43,731 bases of DNA from Escherichia phage vB_EcoP_ACG-C91, in the sequence record NC_019403.1; one strand, 5' to 3'. Made by a program: the position numbers and the translations under genes. This document shows positions 17,331-39,347 of the stretch, one piece after another. How positions within the stretch are numbered: position 1 is the stretch's first letter; every line of letters starts with the position of its first letter. The notes below the pieces were generated by a model, which was not told where the DNA came from, ran no database searches, and saw nothing but the letters and a program-made list of their open reading frames with translations.

Positions 17331-18330
17331 GCTCCGCAGCTTGTACAAAGACTCCGAGGTACTTGATGCAATCGAGCAAGCTACCGACGAGAAAGGTAAT
17401 GTTAACTACAATGAGATGGCACGGGTATTATCGTGCCACCCTGTGGGTAAGAAGATTACCCGCCAGTTGGCTCGATACTGGCATGGTCAATTCAAGAAGA
17501 CCAAGAAGAATGGTGATTATTACCAGACCCTTCTGCAAGAAGATAAGCGTATCAAAGAAGAGCGTAAGCTCAGGACTCCTGACCGCTACGAGGATTTGGC
17601 TATTGTACCATTGCCTGACTCGCCTCATCGAAGTGTACTGGTAATCCCTGACACTCATGCACCCTATGAGCATCCAGATACCTTAGAGTTCCTTGCAGCA
17701 GTTGCAGCACGTTATCGCCCAGATACAGTGGTACATCTTGGGGATGAGGCAGATAAACATGCCCTGTCATTCCATGATTCTGACCCCAATCTGGATAGCG
17801 CTGGCATGGAGTTAGAGAAGGCTCGTGTCTTCATGCATAAGCTGCATAAGATGTTCCCTGTTATGCGCCTGTGTCATTCTAACCACGGCTCTATGCACTT
17901 CCGTAAGGCAAGCGCCAAAGGTATTCCTGTACAATATCTGCGTACCTATCGTGAAGTATTCTTTCCGCATGGGGGTGGCGACCAGTGGGATTGGCAGCAT
18001 ACACACGTTCTTGAATTGCCGAATGGTGAACAGGTTGCATTTAAGCATCAACCAGCAGGCTCAGTCTTAGCAGATGCAGCGCATGAGCGCATGAACTTAG
18101 TGTGCGGTCACTTGCATGGTAAGATGTCGGTGGAGTATGCACGTAACACACATGAGCAGTATTGGGCTGTGCAGGGCGGCTGTTTGATTGATGAGTCATC
18201 TCGTGCATTTGCCTATGGTCGTGAGTCCAAATACAAGCCAGCATTAGGTTGTGTGGTTATTCTGGAGGGTGTGCCGCACATTGTCCCGATGCAGACCAAT
18301 AATGACAATCGCTGGATTGGTAAGATTTAG
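17296..18330 (+). CDS. Calcineurin-like metallophosphoesterase
   Basis: Motifs VIPDTHAP (DxH), HLGDEAD (GDxxD), GHLHG (GHxH); start uncertain (ATG 17296, or TTG 17323 which has the stronger AAGGAGG RBS). Confidence 0.8.
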   Translation: MQERRRRLKLGKLRSLYKDSEVLDAIEQATDEKGNVNYNEMARVLSCHPVGKKITRQLARYWHGQFKKTKKNGDYYQTLLQEDKRIKEERKLRTPDRYEDLAIVPLPDSPHRSVLVIPDTHAPYEHPDTLEFLAAVAARYRPDTVVHLGDEADKHALSFHDSDPNLDSAGMELEKARVFMHKLHKMFPVMRLCHSNHGSMHFRKASAKGIPVQYLRTYREVFFPHGGGDQWDWQHTHVLELPNGEQVAFKHQPAGSVLADAAHERMNLVCGHLHGKMSVEYARNTHEQYWAVQGGCLIDESSRAFAYGRESKYKPALGCVVILEGVPHIVPMQTNNDNRWIGKI

Positions 18331-18345
18331 TTGACACTATAGAAC
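18325..18345 (+). promoter_or_regulatory. Phage-RNAP promoter variant (ATTTAGTTGACACTATAGAAC), more SP6-like
   Basis: Overlaps the stop of the phosphoesterase gene. Confidence 0.6.
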
Positions 18346-18398
18346 AAAGGGTAGGTATTAGCTTACCCTTGATTGTATAGTGAATGGAGGAATTAATT

Positions 18399-18869
18399 AT
18401 GTCAAAGATTGATATTGGCGAATACGTCGTACGCTGTGCAGCTTACCGAGATGCCAACTGGAATAAACTGTGTGAAAGCCTAGACAAGAAACCAGATGGG
18501 GTATTTAAAGTATCCCGTGCAGAACCTAATTATAACTCTATCATGTTAGAAGGTGTTGAGAAGCGCGAATGGTATGCACCTTACTTCAAGGTTGTTGACT
18601 CATTGCAAGGTGAAGATCCTAGCACGTTGGACAACAATATGGTTACTAAGCCTAAGCACTACGAGTTCTTCGATGGGGTAGAGGTAATCACTATCATTGC
18701 TCGTAGTATGACCGAGAAGCAATTTGCTGGATATTGCATGGGTAATGCTTTGAAGTACCGTCTGCGTGCAGGTAAGAAGTTCAATACTGAAGAAGACCTG
18801 AAGAAAGCAGACTACTACAAAGAATTATTCCAGAAGCATCGTCACGAATGTATTGATGAGGATATTTGA
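18399..18869 (+). CDS. DUF3310-like phage protein (157 aa)
   Basis: KPKHYEFFDGVEVITIIA...YCMGNALKYRLRAGKK resembles the DUF3310 signature (HY...G-IE-I...GN-IKY-xRA-xK) as I recall it; start ATG 18399 with GGAGG RBS. Confidence 0.7.
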   Translation: MSKIDIGEYVVRCAAYRDANWNKLCESLDKKPDGVFKVSRAEPNYNSIMLEGVEKREWYAPYFKVVDSLQGEDPSTLDNNMVTKPKHYEFFDGVEVITIIARSMTEKQFAGYCMGNALKYRLRAGKKFNTEEDLKKADYYKELFQKHRHECIDEDI

Positions 18870-18981: not shown

Positions 18982-19925
18982 ATATCTTCCAATTCCTAGG
19001 TCTTCCAGAAGACCACCGCAATCACCCATTCATGCTGGTGAAACATCGCGGTGAAGTGCCTGAGAAGAAATTAACTTTTCCATGTTATGCACAGGTAAAA
19101 CGAGATGGTATATTTAGTGCTGTGGTTGTTCGCAACGATGGTGTCGTTGGTGTCTTTGGACGCACTGGAAAGAAACTGGCTAACACGGAAACCTTGGAAG
19201 AATCTTATTCAGCTTTCCCTACTGGCATTTATCTCGGTGAGTTGCAATCTATGGCTATTGATGTCTACCTTGAAGCACTTTCTGGAGTAGTTAACCCTAA
19301 CCGCACTGAGCCACTGGATTTCATAGGCCAGCAGATTAAAGACAACCTGTATATTGACTTCTTCGATATGTTAACTATTAAGGCATTCCATGATGGATTC
19401 ACTGATGTTTCTTATCTCAAACGTTACGATGCTTTACATCGTCGCATCGGCGCTCATCTTAGCGGGTACAACGCTATCCTTCCTATTACTCCTTGCCATA
19501 ATGAGCGAGAAGTTGAAGCGTTTGCGCAAGAGCAAATAGACGCAGGCCGAGAGGGTGCTGTGTTTAAACTGGACTGTGATTATGAAGCAGGCCACAAAGG
19601 TTATCGTCAGACTAAAGAAGTCCGTAAGGTAACTTATGACCTTACTTGTATTGGCTTTGAAGAAGGCAAAGGTAAGTACAAAGGTAAGGTAGCTAACCTC
19701 ATTTTCAAATGGAAAGGAGGCAAGACAATCAAAGCTATGTTAGGTAAAGGGTGGACTCATGCAGATGCAGAACAGATGTTCCACGATATTAAACATGGTG
19801 GACGATTGAATGTCATTGGTAAAATCTTTGAGGTAAAAGGCCTTCAGGATTCAAGCAAGGGCAACATTCGTCTGCCCAAAGCGGGAGAATTAAGACATGA
19901 CAAAGATGAACCAGATTTCTTTTGA
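18978..19925 (+). CDS. ATP-dependent DNA ligase
   Basis: Nucleotidyl-transferase motif I K-x-DG present as AQVKRDGIF; size 315 aa. Confidence 0.85.
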   Translation: MNIFQFLGLPEDHRNHPFMLVKHRGEVPEKKLTFPCYAQVKRDGIFSAVVVRNDGVVGVFGRTGKKLANTETLEESYSAFPTGIYLGELQSMAIDVYLEALSGVVNPNRTEPLDFIGQQIKDNLYIDFFDMLTIKAFHDGFTDVSYLKRYDALHRRIGAHLSGYNAILPITPCHNEREVEAFAQEQIDAGREGAVFKLDCDYEAGHKGYRQTKEVRKVTYDLTCIGFEEGKGKYKGKVANLIFKWKGGKTIKAMLGKGWTHADAEQMFHDIKHGGRLNVIGKIFEVKGLQDSSKGNIRLPKAGELRHDKDEPDFF

Positions 19926-20112
19926 TAGCATGAAGGCAACTCGTGCAGTTGAGGTAGCAGAAGCTATCTTTGAAACTTTATCCTGTGGCATGGAATTGCC
20001 GTATACTTTACTGGCTGATGCAGAAGAGCTTGGTCTTTCTGTAGAAGCTATCCAAGAGAAGGTTGAAGAACTCTATGGTACAGACGAAGAAGAAACCGAC
20101 GATTTCATTTGA
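19897..20112 (+). CDS. Hypothetical acidic protein (71 aa)
   Basis: ORF track; overlaps ligase 3' end. Confidence 0.5.
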   Translation: MTKMNQISFDSMKATRAVEVAEAIFETLSCGMELPYTLLADAEELGLSVEAIQEKVEELYGTDEEETDDFI

Positions 20113-20116
20113 GGGT

Positions 20117-20245
20117 ATGGAGATGCTTGAGATGATTCTCAAGCCTTCTTCTCCTAAGGTGACTAAGACTCACGAAGAATTAATCGTAGATGAAGTGAAG
20201 CGTTACATTATGGATTGTGTTAGAGCACAACTGGTGGTCCAATGA
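20117..20245 (+). CDS. Hypothetical protein (about 42 aa from ATG 20117; ORF track gives 20063..20245)
   Basis: In-frame ATG just after stop of previous ORF; start uncertain. Confidence 0.4.
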   Translation: MEMLEMILKPSSPKVTKTHEELIVDEVKRYIMDCVRAQLVVQ

Positions 20246-20703
20246 TACGTCCAGCTTCATTCCTAGATATTCCTGAGATTATAAACCTTGGGAATAAATA
20301 TGTGGAAGAGGAAGTCAAGGTTGTAGCCCACCACTCAGCCTCATGGAATGCAGAACAAAGCGCACATAACCTTTGTGCATCTCTTAGTAGAGAAGATTTA
20401 TTCCTATGGGTTGCTGTAGATGAAGGGCAGATTGTAGGTTTTCTGTGGGCTGGATATCACGAGTTAGCCCCTTGGACACCTGTAAGAGTTGCATCTGACA
20501 TTCTCTTTTATATTGTACCAGAGAAGCGAGGGACACTGCTCGGTATGCGCCTCATCAAAGCCTTGAAGCAATGGGCTAACGATAGTAGGTGTTCCGAGGT
20601 TCGCCTGTCTATCGCTTCTGGTATTAATGAAGAACGTGTCGGACGTATGTATAAGCGACTTGGCTTTGAACAGTTTGGCACTGTGTATAACCTGAAGTTC
20701 TAA
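20242..20703 (+). CDS. GNAT-family N-acetyltransferase
   Basis: 153 aa; beta-strand/acetyl-CoA motif QIVGFLWAG ... EKRGTLLGMRLIKALKQWA (R-G-x-x-x-G-x-x-L pattern of GNAT motif A); typical GNAT length. Confidence 0.8.
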   Translation: MIRPASFLDIPEIINLGNKYVEEEVKVVAHHSASWNAEQSAHNLCASLSREDLFLWVAVDEGQIVGFLWAGYHELAPWTPVRVASDILFYIVPEKRGTLLGMRLIKALKQWANDSRCSEVRLSIASGINEERVGRMYKRLGFEQFGTVYNLKF

Positions 20704-20712
20704 GGAGATCAC

Positions 20713-20922
20713 ATGGGTATTGTAAAGAAAGCATTTAAGGCTGTTGGTCTTACTCAAGATGCACCGCGTATTGAAGCCAAGGTTCCTGCACAGCAGCTTG
20801 AGCGTAAGCCTGAGACTGAAGCTGAAGATATACAGATTGGTGCAGGTGATGATGATGCGACTGCATCTGCAAAAGGTAAGCGCGGGCTTGTCCGTCCGGT
20901 AGCTTCTAGCTTGAAGGTGTAA
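20713..20922 (+). CDS. Small hydrophilic protein (69 aa), possibly gp6.7-like virion/morphogenesis protein
   Basis: ORF track; AAGGAG RBS; composition and position before portal resemble T7 gp6.7. Confidence 0.65.
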   Translation: MGIVKKAFKAVGLTQDAPRIEAKVPAQQLERKPETEAEDIQIGAGDDDATASAKGKRGLVRPVASSLKV

Positions 20923-20923
20923 T

Positions 20924-22474
20924 ATGAAACAGAGCACAGATTTGGAGTATGGAGGTAAGCGGTCTAAGATACCTAAGCTATGGGAGAAGTTCTCCACTAA
21001 ACGTAGCTCTTTCCTTGATAGGGCGAAGCATTACTCCAAATTAACCTTGCCCTATCTGATGAATGACAAAGGTGATAACGAGACTTCGCAGAACGGATGG
21101 CAAGGTGTAGGTGCTCAGGCAACTAACCACCTAGCCAACAAGCTAGCGCAAGTGCTATTCCCTGCACAGCGCTCCTTCTTCCGTGTAGACCTAACTGCAC
21201 AAGGTGAGAAGATTCTTAATCAGCGTGGCCTGAAGAAGACAGAGCTAGCTACTATCTTTGCTCAAGTGGAAACACGGGCAATGAAAGAGTTAGAGCAACG
21301 TCAATTCCGGCCTGCTGTAGTAGAAGCATTCAAGCATCTTATTGTTGCTGGTAGCTGTATGCTATACAAGCCAAGCAAAGGTGCAATCAGTGCAATCCCA
21401 ATGCATCACTATGTAGTTAATCGTGACACTAATGGCGACCTGTTAGACATTATCTTACTGCAAGAAAAATCCTTGCGTACATTTGACCCTGCTACACGTG
21501 CTGTAGTAGAGGTTGGCTTGAAAGGTAAGAAATGCAAGGAAGATGACAGCATTAAGCTGTACACACATGCTAAGTATCTTGGTGAGGGTTTTTGGGAACT
21601 CAAGCAATCTGCTGATGATATCCCTGTTGGTAAGGTAAGTAAAATCAAATCAGAAAAGCTACCATTTATCCCGCTAACTTGGAAGCGAAGCTATGGTGAG
21701 GATTGGGGTCGTCCTTTAGCAGAGGATTACTCCGGTGATTTATTCGTTATCCAATTCCTGTCTGAAGCAATTGCCCGTGGTGCTGCACTGATGGCAGATA
21801 TTAAGTACTTGATTCGTCCTGGTGCTCAGACTGATGTTGACCACTTTGTTAACTCTGGCACTGGTGAGGTTGTCACTGGTGTAGAAGAAGACATCCATAT
21901 TGTACAGTTAGGTAAGTATGCAGACCTCACACCTATTAGTGCGGTTCTAGAGGTGTACACTCGCCGTATCGGTGTCGTATTCATGATGGAGACGATGACA
22001 CGCCGTGATGCCGAACGTGTTACTGCTGTAGAAATCCAGCGAGATGCGTTAGAGATTGAGCAGAACATGGGCGGTGTATATTCCCTCTTTGCTACTACTA
22101 TGCAATCGCCAGTAGCGATGTGGGGTCTGCTGGAGGCAGGTGATTCATTCACTAGTGACCTAGTTGACCCTGTGATTATCACAGGCATTGAAGCATTAGG
22201 GCGCATGGCTGAACTGGATAAGCTGGCAAACTTCGCTCAGTACATGTCACTGCCTTTGCAATGGCCTGAGCCTGTCCTAGCTGCTGTGAAGTGGCCTGAT
22301 TACATGGATTGGGTACGTGGTCAAATCTCTGCTGAACTGCCATTCCTTAAATCGACTGAAGAGATGGAGCAAGAACAGGAAGCGCAGATGCAAGCACAGC
22401 AAGCACAGATGCTTGAAGAAGGTGTGGCTAAGGCCATTCCGGGTGTAATTCAACAAGAACTTAAGGAGGCGTAA
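20924..22474 (+). CDS. Portal (head-tail connector) protein
   Basis: 516 aa ORF immediately upstream of scaffold and capsid genes, T7 gp8-like size and position. Confidence 0.8.
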   Translation: MKQSTDLEYGGKRSKIPKLWEKFSTKRSSFLDRAKHYSKLTLPYLMNDKGDNETSQNGWQGVGAQATNHLANKLAQVLFPAQRSFFRVDLTAQGEKILNQRGLKKTELATIFAQVETRAMKELEQRQFRPAVVEAFKHLIVAGSCMLYKPSKGAISAIPMHHYVVNRDTNGDLLDIILLQEKSLRTFDPATRAVVEVGLKGKKCKEDDSIKLYTHAKYLGEGFWELKQSADDIPVGKVSKIKSEKLPFIPLTWKRSYGEDWGRPLAEDYSGDLFVIQFLSEAIARGAALMADIKYLIRPGAQTDVDHFVNSGTGEVVTGVEEDIHIVQLGKYADLTPISAVLEVYTRRIGVVFMMETMTRRDAERVTAVEIQRDALEIEQNMGGVYSLFATTMQSPVAMWGLLEAGDSFTSDLVDPVIITGIEALGRMAELDKLANFAQYMSLPLQWPEPVLAAVKWPDYMDWVRGQISAELPFLKSTEEMEQEQEAQMQAQQAQMLEEGVAKAIPGVIQQELKEA

Positions 22475-23394
22475 TGTCTTTCTCATTTACTGAACCGTCA
22501 ACCACTCATCCTATTGCTGAAGACAATCCGGTAGAAACCAAGGAGGTATCAACTGATGCTACTACTAATGATGTTCATGCTGATACTAGCACTGATGTAC
22601 AAGATGACAATGCTAGTACACAACCTGCTGAAGACACCAGAGGAGAAACTACTGGACAGCCTTCAGAAGCAGGAGACAATGGCGGAGAGAATGGTGAGTC
22701 TAGGCCAGATGATACCACGACCGACACTGAGGAAGTGCAATATTTCTTCGGAGAACATGAAGTAACAGTAGATATACCGCAGGATGTTACTGATAGCCTT
22801 AAGGAGAAGGGTATTGACGCTAAGCAGGTTGCCAAGGAACTCTATGCCAAAGATGGCAAGTTTGAACTGTCGGATGCAACCAAGCAAAAGCTGTATGATG
22901 CTTTTGGCAAGTTTGCGGTAGATGCTTACTTGTCCGGCCTTAAGGCACAGAACGAAGCCTTCTTCCTGAAAGAAGCCAACGCAGCTAAAGAGTTGGAAGC
23001 AGCTAATACTCAGCGATTCTCTGATGTTTCTAAGGAAGTTGGTGGCGAAGAAGGTTGGTCCCGCCTTGAGGCATGGGCGCTTGAAGCACTGTCCGATGAC
23101 GAACTAACGGCCTTCAATGCGGTGATGGAGTCTGGCAACCAGTACTTACAGCAATACGCTGTGCGTGAACTGGAAAGCCGCCGTAAGGCTGCACAAGGTG
23201 ATGACAAGCCAAACCTGATTGAACCTTCTACACCTGCTGCTGCATCTGAAGATAATGGGCCTCTTTCTCGTGAGCAATACCTGCGTGAGATGATGACCCT
23301 TAGCTCTCGCTTCGGTACAGACAAGAAAGCTGCTGCTGAGTATCAGGCTAAACTGGATGCTCGTCGCCGTGCTGGTATGGCTCGCGGACTCTAA
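22474..23394 (+). CDS. Capsid assembly (scaffolding) protein
   Basis: 306 aa, highly acidic N-terminal region, between portal and capsid as T7 gp9; AAGGAGG RBS. Confidence 0.7.
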   Translation: MSFSFTEPSTTHPIAEDNPVETKEVSTDATTNDVHADTSTDVQDDNASTQPAEDTRGETTGQPSEAGDNGGENGESRPDDTTTDTEEVQYFFGEHEVTVDIPQDVTDSLKEKGIDAKQVAKELYAKDGKFELSDATKQKLYDAFGKFAVDAYLSGLKAQNEAFFLKEANAAKELEAANTQRFSDVSKEVGGEEGWSRLEAWALEALSDDELTAFNAVMESGNQYLQQYAVRELESRRKAAQGDDKPNLIEPSTPAAASEDNGPLSREQYLREMMTLSSRFGTDKKAAAEYQAKLDARRRAGMARGL

Positions 23395-23399
23395 TCAGT

Positions 23400-23420
23400 A
23401 TTTACTGGACACTATAGAAG
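23400..23420 (+). promoter_or_regulatory. Phage-RNAP promoter upstream of capsid gene
   Basis: ATTTACTGGACACTATAGAAG exact consensus followed by strong RBS. Confidence 0.8.
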
Positions 23421-24676: not shown

Positions 24677-24684
24677 TACCTATG

Positions 24685-24720
24685 CCCTATCTACCTTGCG
24701 TAGGTAGGGTTCTTTTTGTT
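24685..24720 (+). terminator. Rho-independent terminator after capsid gene
   Basis: 9-bp stem CCCUAUCUA/UAGGUAGGG, 7-nt loop, then UUCUUUUUGUU. Confidence 0.8.
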
Positions 24721-38601: not shown

Positions 38602-38738
38602 GAAGGCCCAGATAATAAGAGAAATAACAAGGATAATATAGGTTAACCTAGGTTATATAGGTATTCCTTAGTATGGGTGTACTCCTGTACACCCTATTCC
38701 TTACTTCCTTACTATACTTACATAATAGGAGAGAGAGA

Positions 38739-39017
38739 ATGTCTAATAGTTATAGTACACAACCTCTTACAGGTAAGTCTGCTCGTAAGCAGATACAACC
38801 TGTTAGTGAAGCCCTGATGCTTCCTGTAGTTTACGGGGACACTGTTGAGAAGAAAGGTGATGTTATTAATGATGCCACCAAATCAGGTAAGCAGAAAGGG
38901 GCCATGGTGTGTCTTGATACACATGATAACCTGGTTATTGCTATCGCAGTTGATGGCAAAGAAGATTCCAATTGGTTGACAGTTAATAAAGCGGTCACTA
39001 CTATTACCCCAGTTTAA
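38739..39017 (+). CDS. Hypothetical protein (92 aa), paralog of the next gene
   Basis: ATG 38739 with AGGAGAG RBS; shares MSN start, SGKQKG(A/S)MV and IAIA motifs with ORF 39030. Confidence 0.65.
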   Translation: MSNSYSTQPLTGKSARKQIQPVSEALMLPVVYGDTVEKKGDVINDATKSGKQKGAMVCLDTHDNLVIAIAVDGKEDSNWLTVNKAVTTITPV

Positions 39018-39029
39018 GAGGAGAATTAC

Positions 39030-39347
39030 ATGTCTAATTATGGAGACGCAGATACTGTTACGGGTCAGGCTTTTCGAGTAAAAACTGTACAAACAACTGC
39101 AACGGCAATTCCTTTGCCTATTGTTGCTGAAGCAGACCTTAAGAAGAAAGATCACCCTATCAACATTAAACACCTATCTGGTAAACAGAAAGGCTCCATG
39201 GTTGCTGTAGAGAAAGCAGGCAACCCCTTGTACATCGCTATTGCACGTGGTAGTGAACCTACTGACCCTTGGGATGCAACCGCTATGGAGTCGACCCCTG
39301 TAACCCCTAAGGGCTTAATTGTAAAAGATGAGGTCAATAGTGCTTAA
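39030..39347 (+). CDS. Hypothetical protein (105 aa), paralog of the previous gene
   Basis: ORF track; AAGAGGAG RBS. Confidence 0.65.
   Translation: MSNYGDADTVTGQAFRVKTVQTTATAIPLPIVAEADLKKKDHPINIKHLSGKQKGSMVAVEKAGNPLYIAIARGSEPTDPWDATAMESTPVTPKGLIVKDEVNSA

Follow-up and report, generated by a model that had tools for sequence, protein, structure and literature searches.

What does the acetyltransferase that SP6-type phages encode just ahead of their head genes act upon? The question is raised here by Escherichia phage vB_EcoP_ACG-C91 (NC_019403.1), whose 43,731 nucleotides make up the whole stretch of DNA that was analysed, referred to below as the window. An earlier, sequence-only reading had called the product of a 153-amino-acid open reading frame (ORF; Table 1) a GNAT acetyltransferase, encoded in a slot that in T7 holds small virion or host-range genes, and the ORF, its ATG start and its translation all agree with that reading. 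The acetyltransferase call is not new, because the orthologs of K1E and SP6 already carry this annotation in public records. A survey of SP6, K1-5 and K1E, which the earlier reading had proposed, finds the gene present as gene 28, gene 27 and gene 27, respectively, and named "acetyltransferase" in RefSeq or GenBank in all three. There is nothing unusual about the enzyme itself. What is added here is that it can be placed in a "gene 7" lineage spanning the virus family, together with two other proteins, Rac of phage LUZ19 and gp7 of T7. Within this lineage, which appears to fill the T7 gene 7 slot throughout the Autographiviridae, the window protein would be an intact-enzyme member, and we tentatively favour proteins of the infected host as its target.

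The ORF is a real gene under strong purifying selection. The ratio of nonsynonymous to synonymous substitution rates is 0.03-0.12 against nine relatives with 68-98% nucleotide identity, two further relatives (60% nucleotide identity) having been left out of the calculation as their synonymous sites were saturated. Homologs are found by tblastn in 246 phage records. The gene is also tightly fitted to its neighbours. Its start codon overlaps the stop of the upstream 60-amino-acid ORF as ATGA at 20242-20245, and its stop falls within the ribosome-binding site (TAAGGAGATCACATG) of the following 69-amino-acid ORF, which in turn ends one base ahead of the portal start. Antisense ORFs across the region matched no family. 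The GC content and base composition are the same as those of the neighbouring genes, which speaks against a recent horizontal acquisition, and a scan of 185,579 bacterial and archaeal species genomes, pattern-based and detecting near relatives only, returned no cellular homologs of the SP6-type clade.

The window belongs to Vectrevirus (K1E-like, within the SP6 supergroup), and by megablast its GNAT region is 99% identical to that of vB_EcoP_C and 98.7% identical to that of mutPK1A2. K1E gp27 and SP6 gp28 are 99% and 74.5% identical to the window GNAT at the protein level, and both have the same length, slot and neighbours. K1-5 gp27 is likewise an ortholog, apart from a 22-residue in-frame duplication or insertion. 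Its gene (L044:1131-1658) specifies 175 amino acids, and the first 12 residues of the 22-residue insertion (HHSASWNAEQSA) repeat the adjacent sequence. The insertion is sited in the alpha1-alpha2 loop, where GNATs usually bind the acceptor, and could be either a natural variant or a change that arose in a laboratory stock.

Sequence profiles and a structure model agree in identifying the product as a GNAT. Pfam family PF00583 (Acetyltransf_1) matches at E 1.6e-9 with 38.4 bits, its cut-off being 20.7, PF13508 (37.4 against 27 bits) and PF13673 (26.2 against 23.6 bits) are likewise above threshold, and phrog_1249, annotated "acetyltransferase", is matched at E 2e-53. The AlphaFold2 model, built with 16 homologs, has a predicted local distance difference test (pLDDT) score of 87.5 and a predicted template modelling score of 0.84. 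Its elements run in the order beta1-alpha1-alpha2-beta2-beta3-beta4-alpha3-beta5-alpha4-beta6-beta7, which is the GNAT topology. Foldseek against the PDB gave 557 matches at E<=1e-3, and the best 50 of the 557 are all GNATs, with template modelling (TM) scores of up to 0.77. Both a GNAT Pfam match and a GNAT-like model, on which the earlier call had been made to depend, were thus obtained.

An exhaustive profile search with the family recovers 1,201 clusters at E<=1e-10, mostly of 145-160 amino acids, and the conservation percentages given here come from an alignment of 158 diverse members. The conserved positions are R3, D9, E23, G66, A84, Y90, P93, W111 and G146, and position 86 is Asp or Glu in 91%. 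The motif-A-like peptide singled out by the sequence-only reading, EKRGTLLGMRLIKAL, comprises residues 94-108, and it corresponds to the beta4-alpha3 loop for the pyrophosphate of acetyl-coenzyme A (acetyl-CoA) together with the start of alpha3, a helix that spans residues 99-114 in the model. Arg96 is conserved in 98% and Gly97 in 88%, and position 101 is Gly or Ala in 92%. The loop, R96-G97-T-L-L-G101, is a variant of the form R-G-x-x-x-G/A of the canonical Q/R-x-x-G-x-G/A, in which a variable residue stands where the canonical motif has its fourth-position Gly, and the conserved Gly is Gly97 instead. The backbone amides of this variant loop could bind pyrophosphate. Within motif B, N129, Y137, G141 and F142 are all present in the window protein; G127 is found in 84% of the family, Y137 in 73% (with Phe in 13% and Leu in 9%) and G141 in 96%, and the sequence SGIN is invariant within the SP6-type clade. 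With these residues in place the window protein is very probably catalytically competent. Five hits of the profile search (P0064, P0070, P0076, P0086 and P0097) are longer, with 277-385 amino acids, four of the five with two matched stretches, suggesting tandem GNATs or fusions.

The T7 slot named by the sequence-only reading can be made more precise. The 69-amino-acid ORF that follows the GNAT is a homolog of T7 gp7.3, and the GNAT therefore occupies the T7 gene 7 ("host range") position. T7 gp7.3 itself belongs to phrog_1320 / PF11653, and the two proteins have in common a C-terminal KGKRGL...R motif and an M-G start (GIVKKAFKAVGL is a peptide from the 69-residue neighbour). T7 gp7.3 is a small virion protein, reported to be ejected at infection and required for adsorption, and T7 gene 7 has been labelled "host range" from the earliest T7 genetic maps on. 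In RefSeq, genes 7 and 7.3 of T7 share the product name "host range and adsorption protein". Across subfamilies the gp7.3-like proteins mostly start with M-G and a Lys-rich stretch, and their tails are of the type KGKRGL..R...G(I/L)N(I/V). Speculatively, the N-terminus resembles a membrane-binding motif composed of an acylated Gly and a polybasic segment.

The arrangement is retained well beyond the window. In 35 of 35 loci, of which 29 come from IMG/VR contigs of phages closely related to the SP6 type (49-99% identity) and 6 from GenBank records, tblastn places the start of the portal gene 221-582 nucleotides downstream of the GNAT. A gp7.3-like ORF was detected between them in 33 of the 35, and in the remaining two, Nostoc phage NMeng1 and Rhizobium phage Paso, small ORFs are annotated at this point. 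The order of GNAT, small ORF and portal also recurs in annotated records of other Autographiviridae subfamilies, independently of the upstream gene, which is a ligase in Molineuxvirinae and Colwellvirinae (AS51, Njord), the phage RNA polymerase (RNAP) in NMeng1 and Paso, and, as a third type among the subfamilies sampled, an exonuclease. In Vibrio phage AS51, an unannotated gp7.3-like ORF (L003:2980-3111) sits in the gap between acetyltransferase and portal, with 39% identity to the 69-residue ORF of the window by tblastn. A GNAT-fold gene stands at the head of the structural module in every subfamily sampled, namely the SP6-like, phiKMV-like, Colwellvirinae, Ghunavirus and T7-like groups. The GNAT diverges faster than the portal or the ligase, for example with 49% against 70-75% identity.

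More distant members of the family are less uniform in their location. One metagenomic member (L054) retains the order of GNAT, small ORF and portal. In clusters P0100 (L050:1383-1817 and L051:1383-1817) and P0075 (L055:1005-1457) the GNAT has tail tubular protein B on one side and a gp14-like internal virion protein on the other, as it does in the published genome of Alteromonas phage ZP6, and a further distant member (L052) is located among DNA-metabolism genes. A relationship between T7 gp13 and the GNATs of such a "gene 13 slot" was considered and rejected, with hhalign giving less than 1%.

T7 gp7 (phrog_2746, "host range") takes the same place as the window GNAT, directly upstream of gp7.3 and the portal, and the likeness extends to its predicted structure. 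No Pfam domain was found in T7 gp7 (L013:1131-1532). Its AlphaFold2 model, with a pLDDT score of 90.6, is a GNAT core without alpha4, and its 50 best PDB matches are all GNATs. Beyond its own orthologs, its nearest viral structural neighbours are proteins of Lidtsur, K1F (gp6.8), Axy23, phiNV3 and PPpW-4, all of them Autographiviridae slot proteins that are GNATs by annotation or by the present analysis. In hhalign comparisons, a diversified gp7 alignment matches the Rac family with 89% (E 2e-6) and the window family with 83.6% (E 8e-6). The latter link is made by profile-profile comparison only, the window protein having no match to phrog_2746 and an E of 0.19 on a hidden Markov model (HMM) of the gp7 family. 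The "host specificity protein A" of ICP3 scores on the window, Rac and gp7 HMMs and so bridges the three families. Most gp7-family proteins have Asp in place of the CoA-loop Arg, and T7 gp7 is without alpha4 and its Tyr, whereas the window protein keeps them all; T7 gp7 is therefore probably a degenerate GNAT and a non-catalytic pseudoenzyme. The conservation of such a non-catalytic relative suggests, in turn, that the ligand of the lineage is a macromolecule rather than a metabolite. Our literature search turned up no paper on the mechanism of T7 gp7 and none stating that it has a GNAT-like fold, and the accessible part of the PhageMaP text says nothing specific on T7 gene 7.

The other branch of the lineage is represented by Rac (LUZ19 gp28), known from phiKMV-like phages as the protein of RNAP alpha-subunit cleavage. 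This predicted GNAT causes host lysine acetylation to rise and sets off the cleavage of the RNAP alpha linker by a host protease at 5-6 min into infection (PMC7552054). Rac inhibits host growth and acts without other phage proteins, and a mutant of its acetyl-CoA pocket is inactive (PMC7552054). Its locus, which consists of RNAP, a small ORF, the GNAT, the small virion protein gp29, portal and scaffold, gives it a slot matching that of the window GNAT. Seven further relatives of Rac, from Krylovirinae, Waewaevirus and Ghunavirus, show a Rac-like arrangement; these were gathered by tblastn of phage records, a word-index search having given one protein. In the Ghunavirus genomes KNP and phiPsa17, whose copies are identical, the Rac-type GNAT lies exactly between homologs of gp6.7 and gp7.3, and the authors of the phiPsa17 report named it gp7. 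The Rac-family proteins also match phrog_2746, the T7 gene 7 family, at E values down to 3e-8.

Rac is a GNAT-derived protein of about 150 amino acids that belongs to phrog_3986, and the window protein matches phrog_1249 and not phrog_3986. Their relationship comes out in profile comparisons. Aligning the window family (158 sequences) with the Rac family (7 sequences), hhalign gives 96.6-97.4% at E 6e-10 to 1.4e-11 over 116-122 columns, and reversed-sequence controls give 0.4%. On the Rac-family HMM the window protein scores at E 3.7e-7, with 21 bits, where members exceed 180. An acetyltransferase-annotated PHROG is matched by five of the seven Rac-family proteins, and in all five the best of these is phrog_1249. 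The P-E-x-R-G CoA loop is kept by both the Rac-type proteins and the window protein, and hhalign pairs Y89, V90 and R95 of Rac with Y90, I91 and R96 of the window protein. The profiles thus make the window protein a remote homolog of Rac. It is not a member of the Rac family, because the Rac-type proteins have replaced alpha4 and motif B with an AY(S/T)HR..G.GRY hairpin, whereas the window protein keeps both. One slot accordingly holds three grades of protein, with the complete enzyme of the window, the Rac type, and the degenerate T7 gp7 type.

No family with a defined substrate could be attached to the window protein, and, as the sequence-only reading stated, the sequence does not allow the substrate to be inferred. 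The NCBIfam equivalogs nearest to it are ArsN1a (28.7 against a cut-off of 170 bits), AAC(6') group E (26.6 against 140) and RimI (24.4 against 86.4), none of them above cut-off, and no SpeG model was matched. Sequence matches in the PDB are weak (4j3g at E 1e-6, SSAT at E 3e-4), and the family profile reaches the polyamine acetyltransferase DpA at E 4e-5. Assignment to a substrate subfamily was rejected, since NCBIfam, the PDB searches with single sequence and profile, and Foldseek all gave generic, sub-threshold results. Membership of the spermidine/diamine N-acetyltransferases (SpeG, SSAT, DpA) was discarded as there is no family-level sequence similarity, and membership of the phosphinothricin/arsinothricin (ArsN1), AAC(6') or RimI groups was discarded as the NCBIfam scores lie far under the cut-offs. 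The phosphinothricin/ArsN1, SSAT/SpeG/DpA and AAC(6') enzymes do have the same minimal single-domain fold as the window protein (TM 0.65-0.77), but their identity to it is 15-24%, its scores are 4-10 fold under the family cut-offs, and no substrate-binding signature is transferable from these small-molecule GNATs.

From these relationships we infer an active, acetyl-CoA-dependent N-acetyltransferase that would modify proteins of the host cell. The phage RNAP would transcribe the gene from the promoter that heads its unit, and since the GNAT lies within this packed unit the protein would be made from middle to late times. It is taken to be a non-virion protein, because the Rac-family gp7 of phiPsa17 (100% identical to KNP gp32) does not appear in the accessible part of the phiPsa17 virion-proteome table, where gp6.7, gp7.3, gp8 and later structural proteins are listed. 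Acetyl-CoA is predicted to bind across the beta4-alpha3 loop (R96-G97...G101) and alpha4, Asp86 may act as general base and Tyr137 as general acid, and the acetyl group would pass to a primary amine. The acceptor is most likely a protein, at either a Lys side chain or the N-terminus. Host proteins are the target of first choice because Rac, the sole characterised relative, raises host lysine acetylation and so triggers the inactivation of the host RNA polymerase, and the faster divergence of the GNAT, a trait often seen in host-interacting proteins, is in keeping with such a target. By this analogy an action on host proteins, in the manner of Rac, is a possible answer that we hold tentatively.

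Several observations weigh against it. The literature search turned up no functional, proteomic or knock-out data on an SP6-type GNAT. The LKA1 homolog, which occupies the same slot, does not cause cleavage of RNAP alpha, so that this effect is genus-specific (PMC7552054). Rac is without effect in P. putida, its host effect having been shown only in P. aeruginosa, and its direct substrate has never been identified. The sequence link is also remote: BLASTP of the window protein against Rac gives E 4.6 at about 16% identity, a narrow-profile HMM gives E 0.2, with broad profiles alone detecting the link, and the Rac-type proteins differ in the replaced alpha4 and motif B. Finally, the window GNAT is co-expressed with structural and not with early genes, distant members again adjoin ejection proteins, which favours a virion target, and the best of the weak matches to characterised enzymes are small-amine acetyltransferases.

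A target within the virion is the closest competitor to a host-protein target, and the two readings stand near each other, with the virion somewhat the more doubtful. Here, the GNAT would acetylate or acylate a phage structural protein during assembly and thereby tune adsorption or infectivity ("host range"), the prime candidate being the gp7.3-like ejected protein translated together with it, which could be modified on either the N-terminal Gly or the Lys-rich stretch of the N-terminus; T7 gp7 would then descend from such an enzyme as a pseudoenzyme that has kept the binding partner. The order of GNAT, gp7.3-like gene and portal across the loci and every subfamily sampled, whatever the upstream gene, the overlapping or abutting ORFs, the shared RefSeq name of T7 genes 7 and 7.3, and the M-G and Lys-rich start of most gp7.3-like proteins all fit this proposal. 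So do the distant members with canonical motifs (L050, L055) that lie next to a gp14-like gene as in ZP6, and the absence of the Rac-family protein from the phiPsa17 virion table, as far as that report is accessible, would suit an assembly enzyme. Synteny alone, however, is weak functional evidence because Autographiviridae genomes are generally collinear, and T7 gp7.3 keeps its M-G-K-K start although T7 gp7 looks non-catalytic. The L052 member lies among DNA-metabolism genes, Rac affects the host without any other phage protein, and we know of no phage virion protein that is acetylated by a phage GNAT. A more specific form, in which the slot GNAT determines adsorption competence and host range by acetylating or acylating the small ejected protein encoded directly downstream (of the gp7.3-like kind here, of the gp14-like kind in other podoviruses), with T7 gp7 as a pseudoenzyme that chaperones gp7.3, is rather unlikely. 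Taken together, the host and virion readings make a protein amine a moderately probable acceptor, and a fairly probable one if a host immune protein is counted as well.

That last target belongs to a counter-defence role, in which the GNAT would acetylate and inactivate a host immune protein and be needed only on hosts with the system concerned. AcrVA5, which acts on Cas12a, is a precedent, the GNAT evolves faster than its neighbours, and such a need would also appear as the "host range" phenotype with which the T7 relative is labelled. Accessory anti-defence genes, however, are patchy and usually early, whereas the GNAT is retained near-universally at one core position in phages with hosts from E. 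coli to Nostoc and Rhizobium, and the PADLOC defence and counter-defence models gave a single 12-bit match; we regard the role as quite improbable. Less so, but still improbable, is an acetyltransferase for small amines, such as a polyamine or diamine, an aminoglycoside-like antibiotic or a toxic amino-acid analogue, which might for example adjust polyamine pools for DNA packaging or detoxify an inhibitor. The nearest characterised relatives by sequence and fold are indeed of the phosphinothricin/ArsN, SSAT1/2, DpA and AAC(6') types, and the gene is expressed alongside those for head assembly. Functional phage spermidine acetyltransferases also exist, but none of the nine candidates named in the accessible part of a systematic survey comes from the Autographiviridae (PMC9992855). 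All of the matches are far below the family cut-offs, those in the PDB being at E 1e-6 or weaker, and conserved degenerate relatives such as T7 gp7 are hard to square with a purely metabolic role. The sequence-only reading had also mentioned toxins that acetylate aminoacyl-tRNA, and a protein of the TacT/AtaT/ItaT kind would halt host translation. Beyond the generic GNAT fold nothing speaks for this, and it is very improbable indeed: no toxin-type GNAT appears among the NCBIfam or Pfam matches or the best 50 of the 557 PDB fold matches, and no neighbour resembles an antitoxin, the neighbours being conserved phage morphogenesis genes. A tRNA-binding toxin would be expected to be basic, and the window GNAT has 17 Lys and Arg against 18 Asp and Glu. 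A block of translation during the synthesis of structural proteins would, moreover, be self-defeating.

If the lineage holds, studies of Rac and of T7 gene 7 share a single question, and the best member for a biochemical search for the substrate is the SP6/K1E protein, whose catalytic motifs are all intact. If modification of the virion were true, the GNAT would be the first known phage-encoded acyltransferase acting on a virion protein, and it would provide a mechanism for one of the few T7 genes still lacking an explanation. For the engineering of K1E- and SP6-like phages, which find use in therapy and biocontrol, a gene with an effect on host takeover or adsorption matters.

Table 1. Positions in the window of the GNAT gene, its motifs and the surrounding features
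Feature	Position	Strand	Basis
Phage-RNAP promoter, SP6/K1E type, ATTTAGTTGACACTATAGAAC; heads the transcription unit with the GNAT	18325..18345	+	consensus match
Small ORF, 71 amino acids, K1E gp25 homolog	19897..20112	+	phrog_5860, E 5e-41; kept upstream of the GNAT in SP6-like loci
Small ORF, 60 amino acids, K1E gp26 homolog; stop overlaps GNAT start	20063..20245	+	phrog_6507, E 3e-37; kept in SP6-like loci
GNAT N-acetyltransferase, 153 amino acids	20242..20703	+	Pfam, PHROG, AlphaFold2 model, Foldseek against PDB, dN/dS
Motif A: beta4-alpha3 pyrophosphate-binding loop and start of helix alpha3 (E94-L108; R96-G97-x-x-x-G101)	20521..20565	+	alignment, model
Motif B region: S126-G127-I128-N129 ... 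Y137 ... G141-F142 (beta5-alpha4; putative general-acid Tyr)	20617..20667	+	alignment
69-amino-acid homolog of T7 gp7.3	20713..20922	+	phrog_1320, E 3e-11
Portal (head-tail connector; T7 gp8 homolog)	20924..22474	+	K1E and mutPK1A2 annotation
Scaffolding protein, final gene of the transcription unit	22474..23394	+	annotation of relatives

The transcription unit that contains the GNAT is defined by its promoters. Thirteen sites in the window fit the consensus ATTTACTGGACACTATAGAAG, all of them on the plus strand, and the next one after that at 18325 is at 23400-23420, with none between the two. The unit comprises genes for a DUF3310 protein, the ligase, two small ORFs, the GNAT, the 69-residue ORF, portal and scaffold, and its ORFs overlap or abut. 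The capsid gene is next and has its own promoter.

Some further features of the window can be noted in passing. The DUF3310 protein at the head of the unit (18384-18869, 161 amino acids) is annotated in relatives as a nucleotide kinase or gp1.7-like. In comparison with mutPK1A2 its N-terminal half is unrelated at the DNA level and its C-terminal half is nearly identical; a frameshift upstream of the ligase was considered and rejected, the discrepancy in this ORF being a mosaic junction. Elsewhere in mutPK1A2 (L014:38849-39431), two ORFs of 92 and 95 amino acids that follow the terminase are named "acetyl-CoA acetyltransferase" in RefSeq, a name to which Pfam gives no support. The counterpart of that region in the window (about 38733-39336) has no megablast alignment to it, and the window is about 660 bases shorter there. 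At 24684-24710, just behind the major capsid gene, a strong hairpin of the terminator type, with an 11-bp stem and then a T-run, takes the position of the T7 terminator T-phi.

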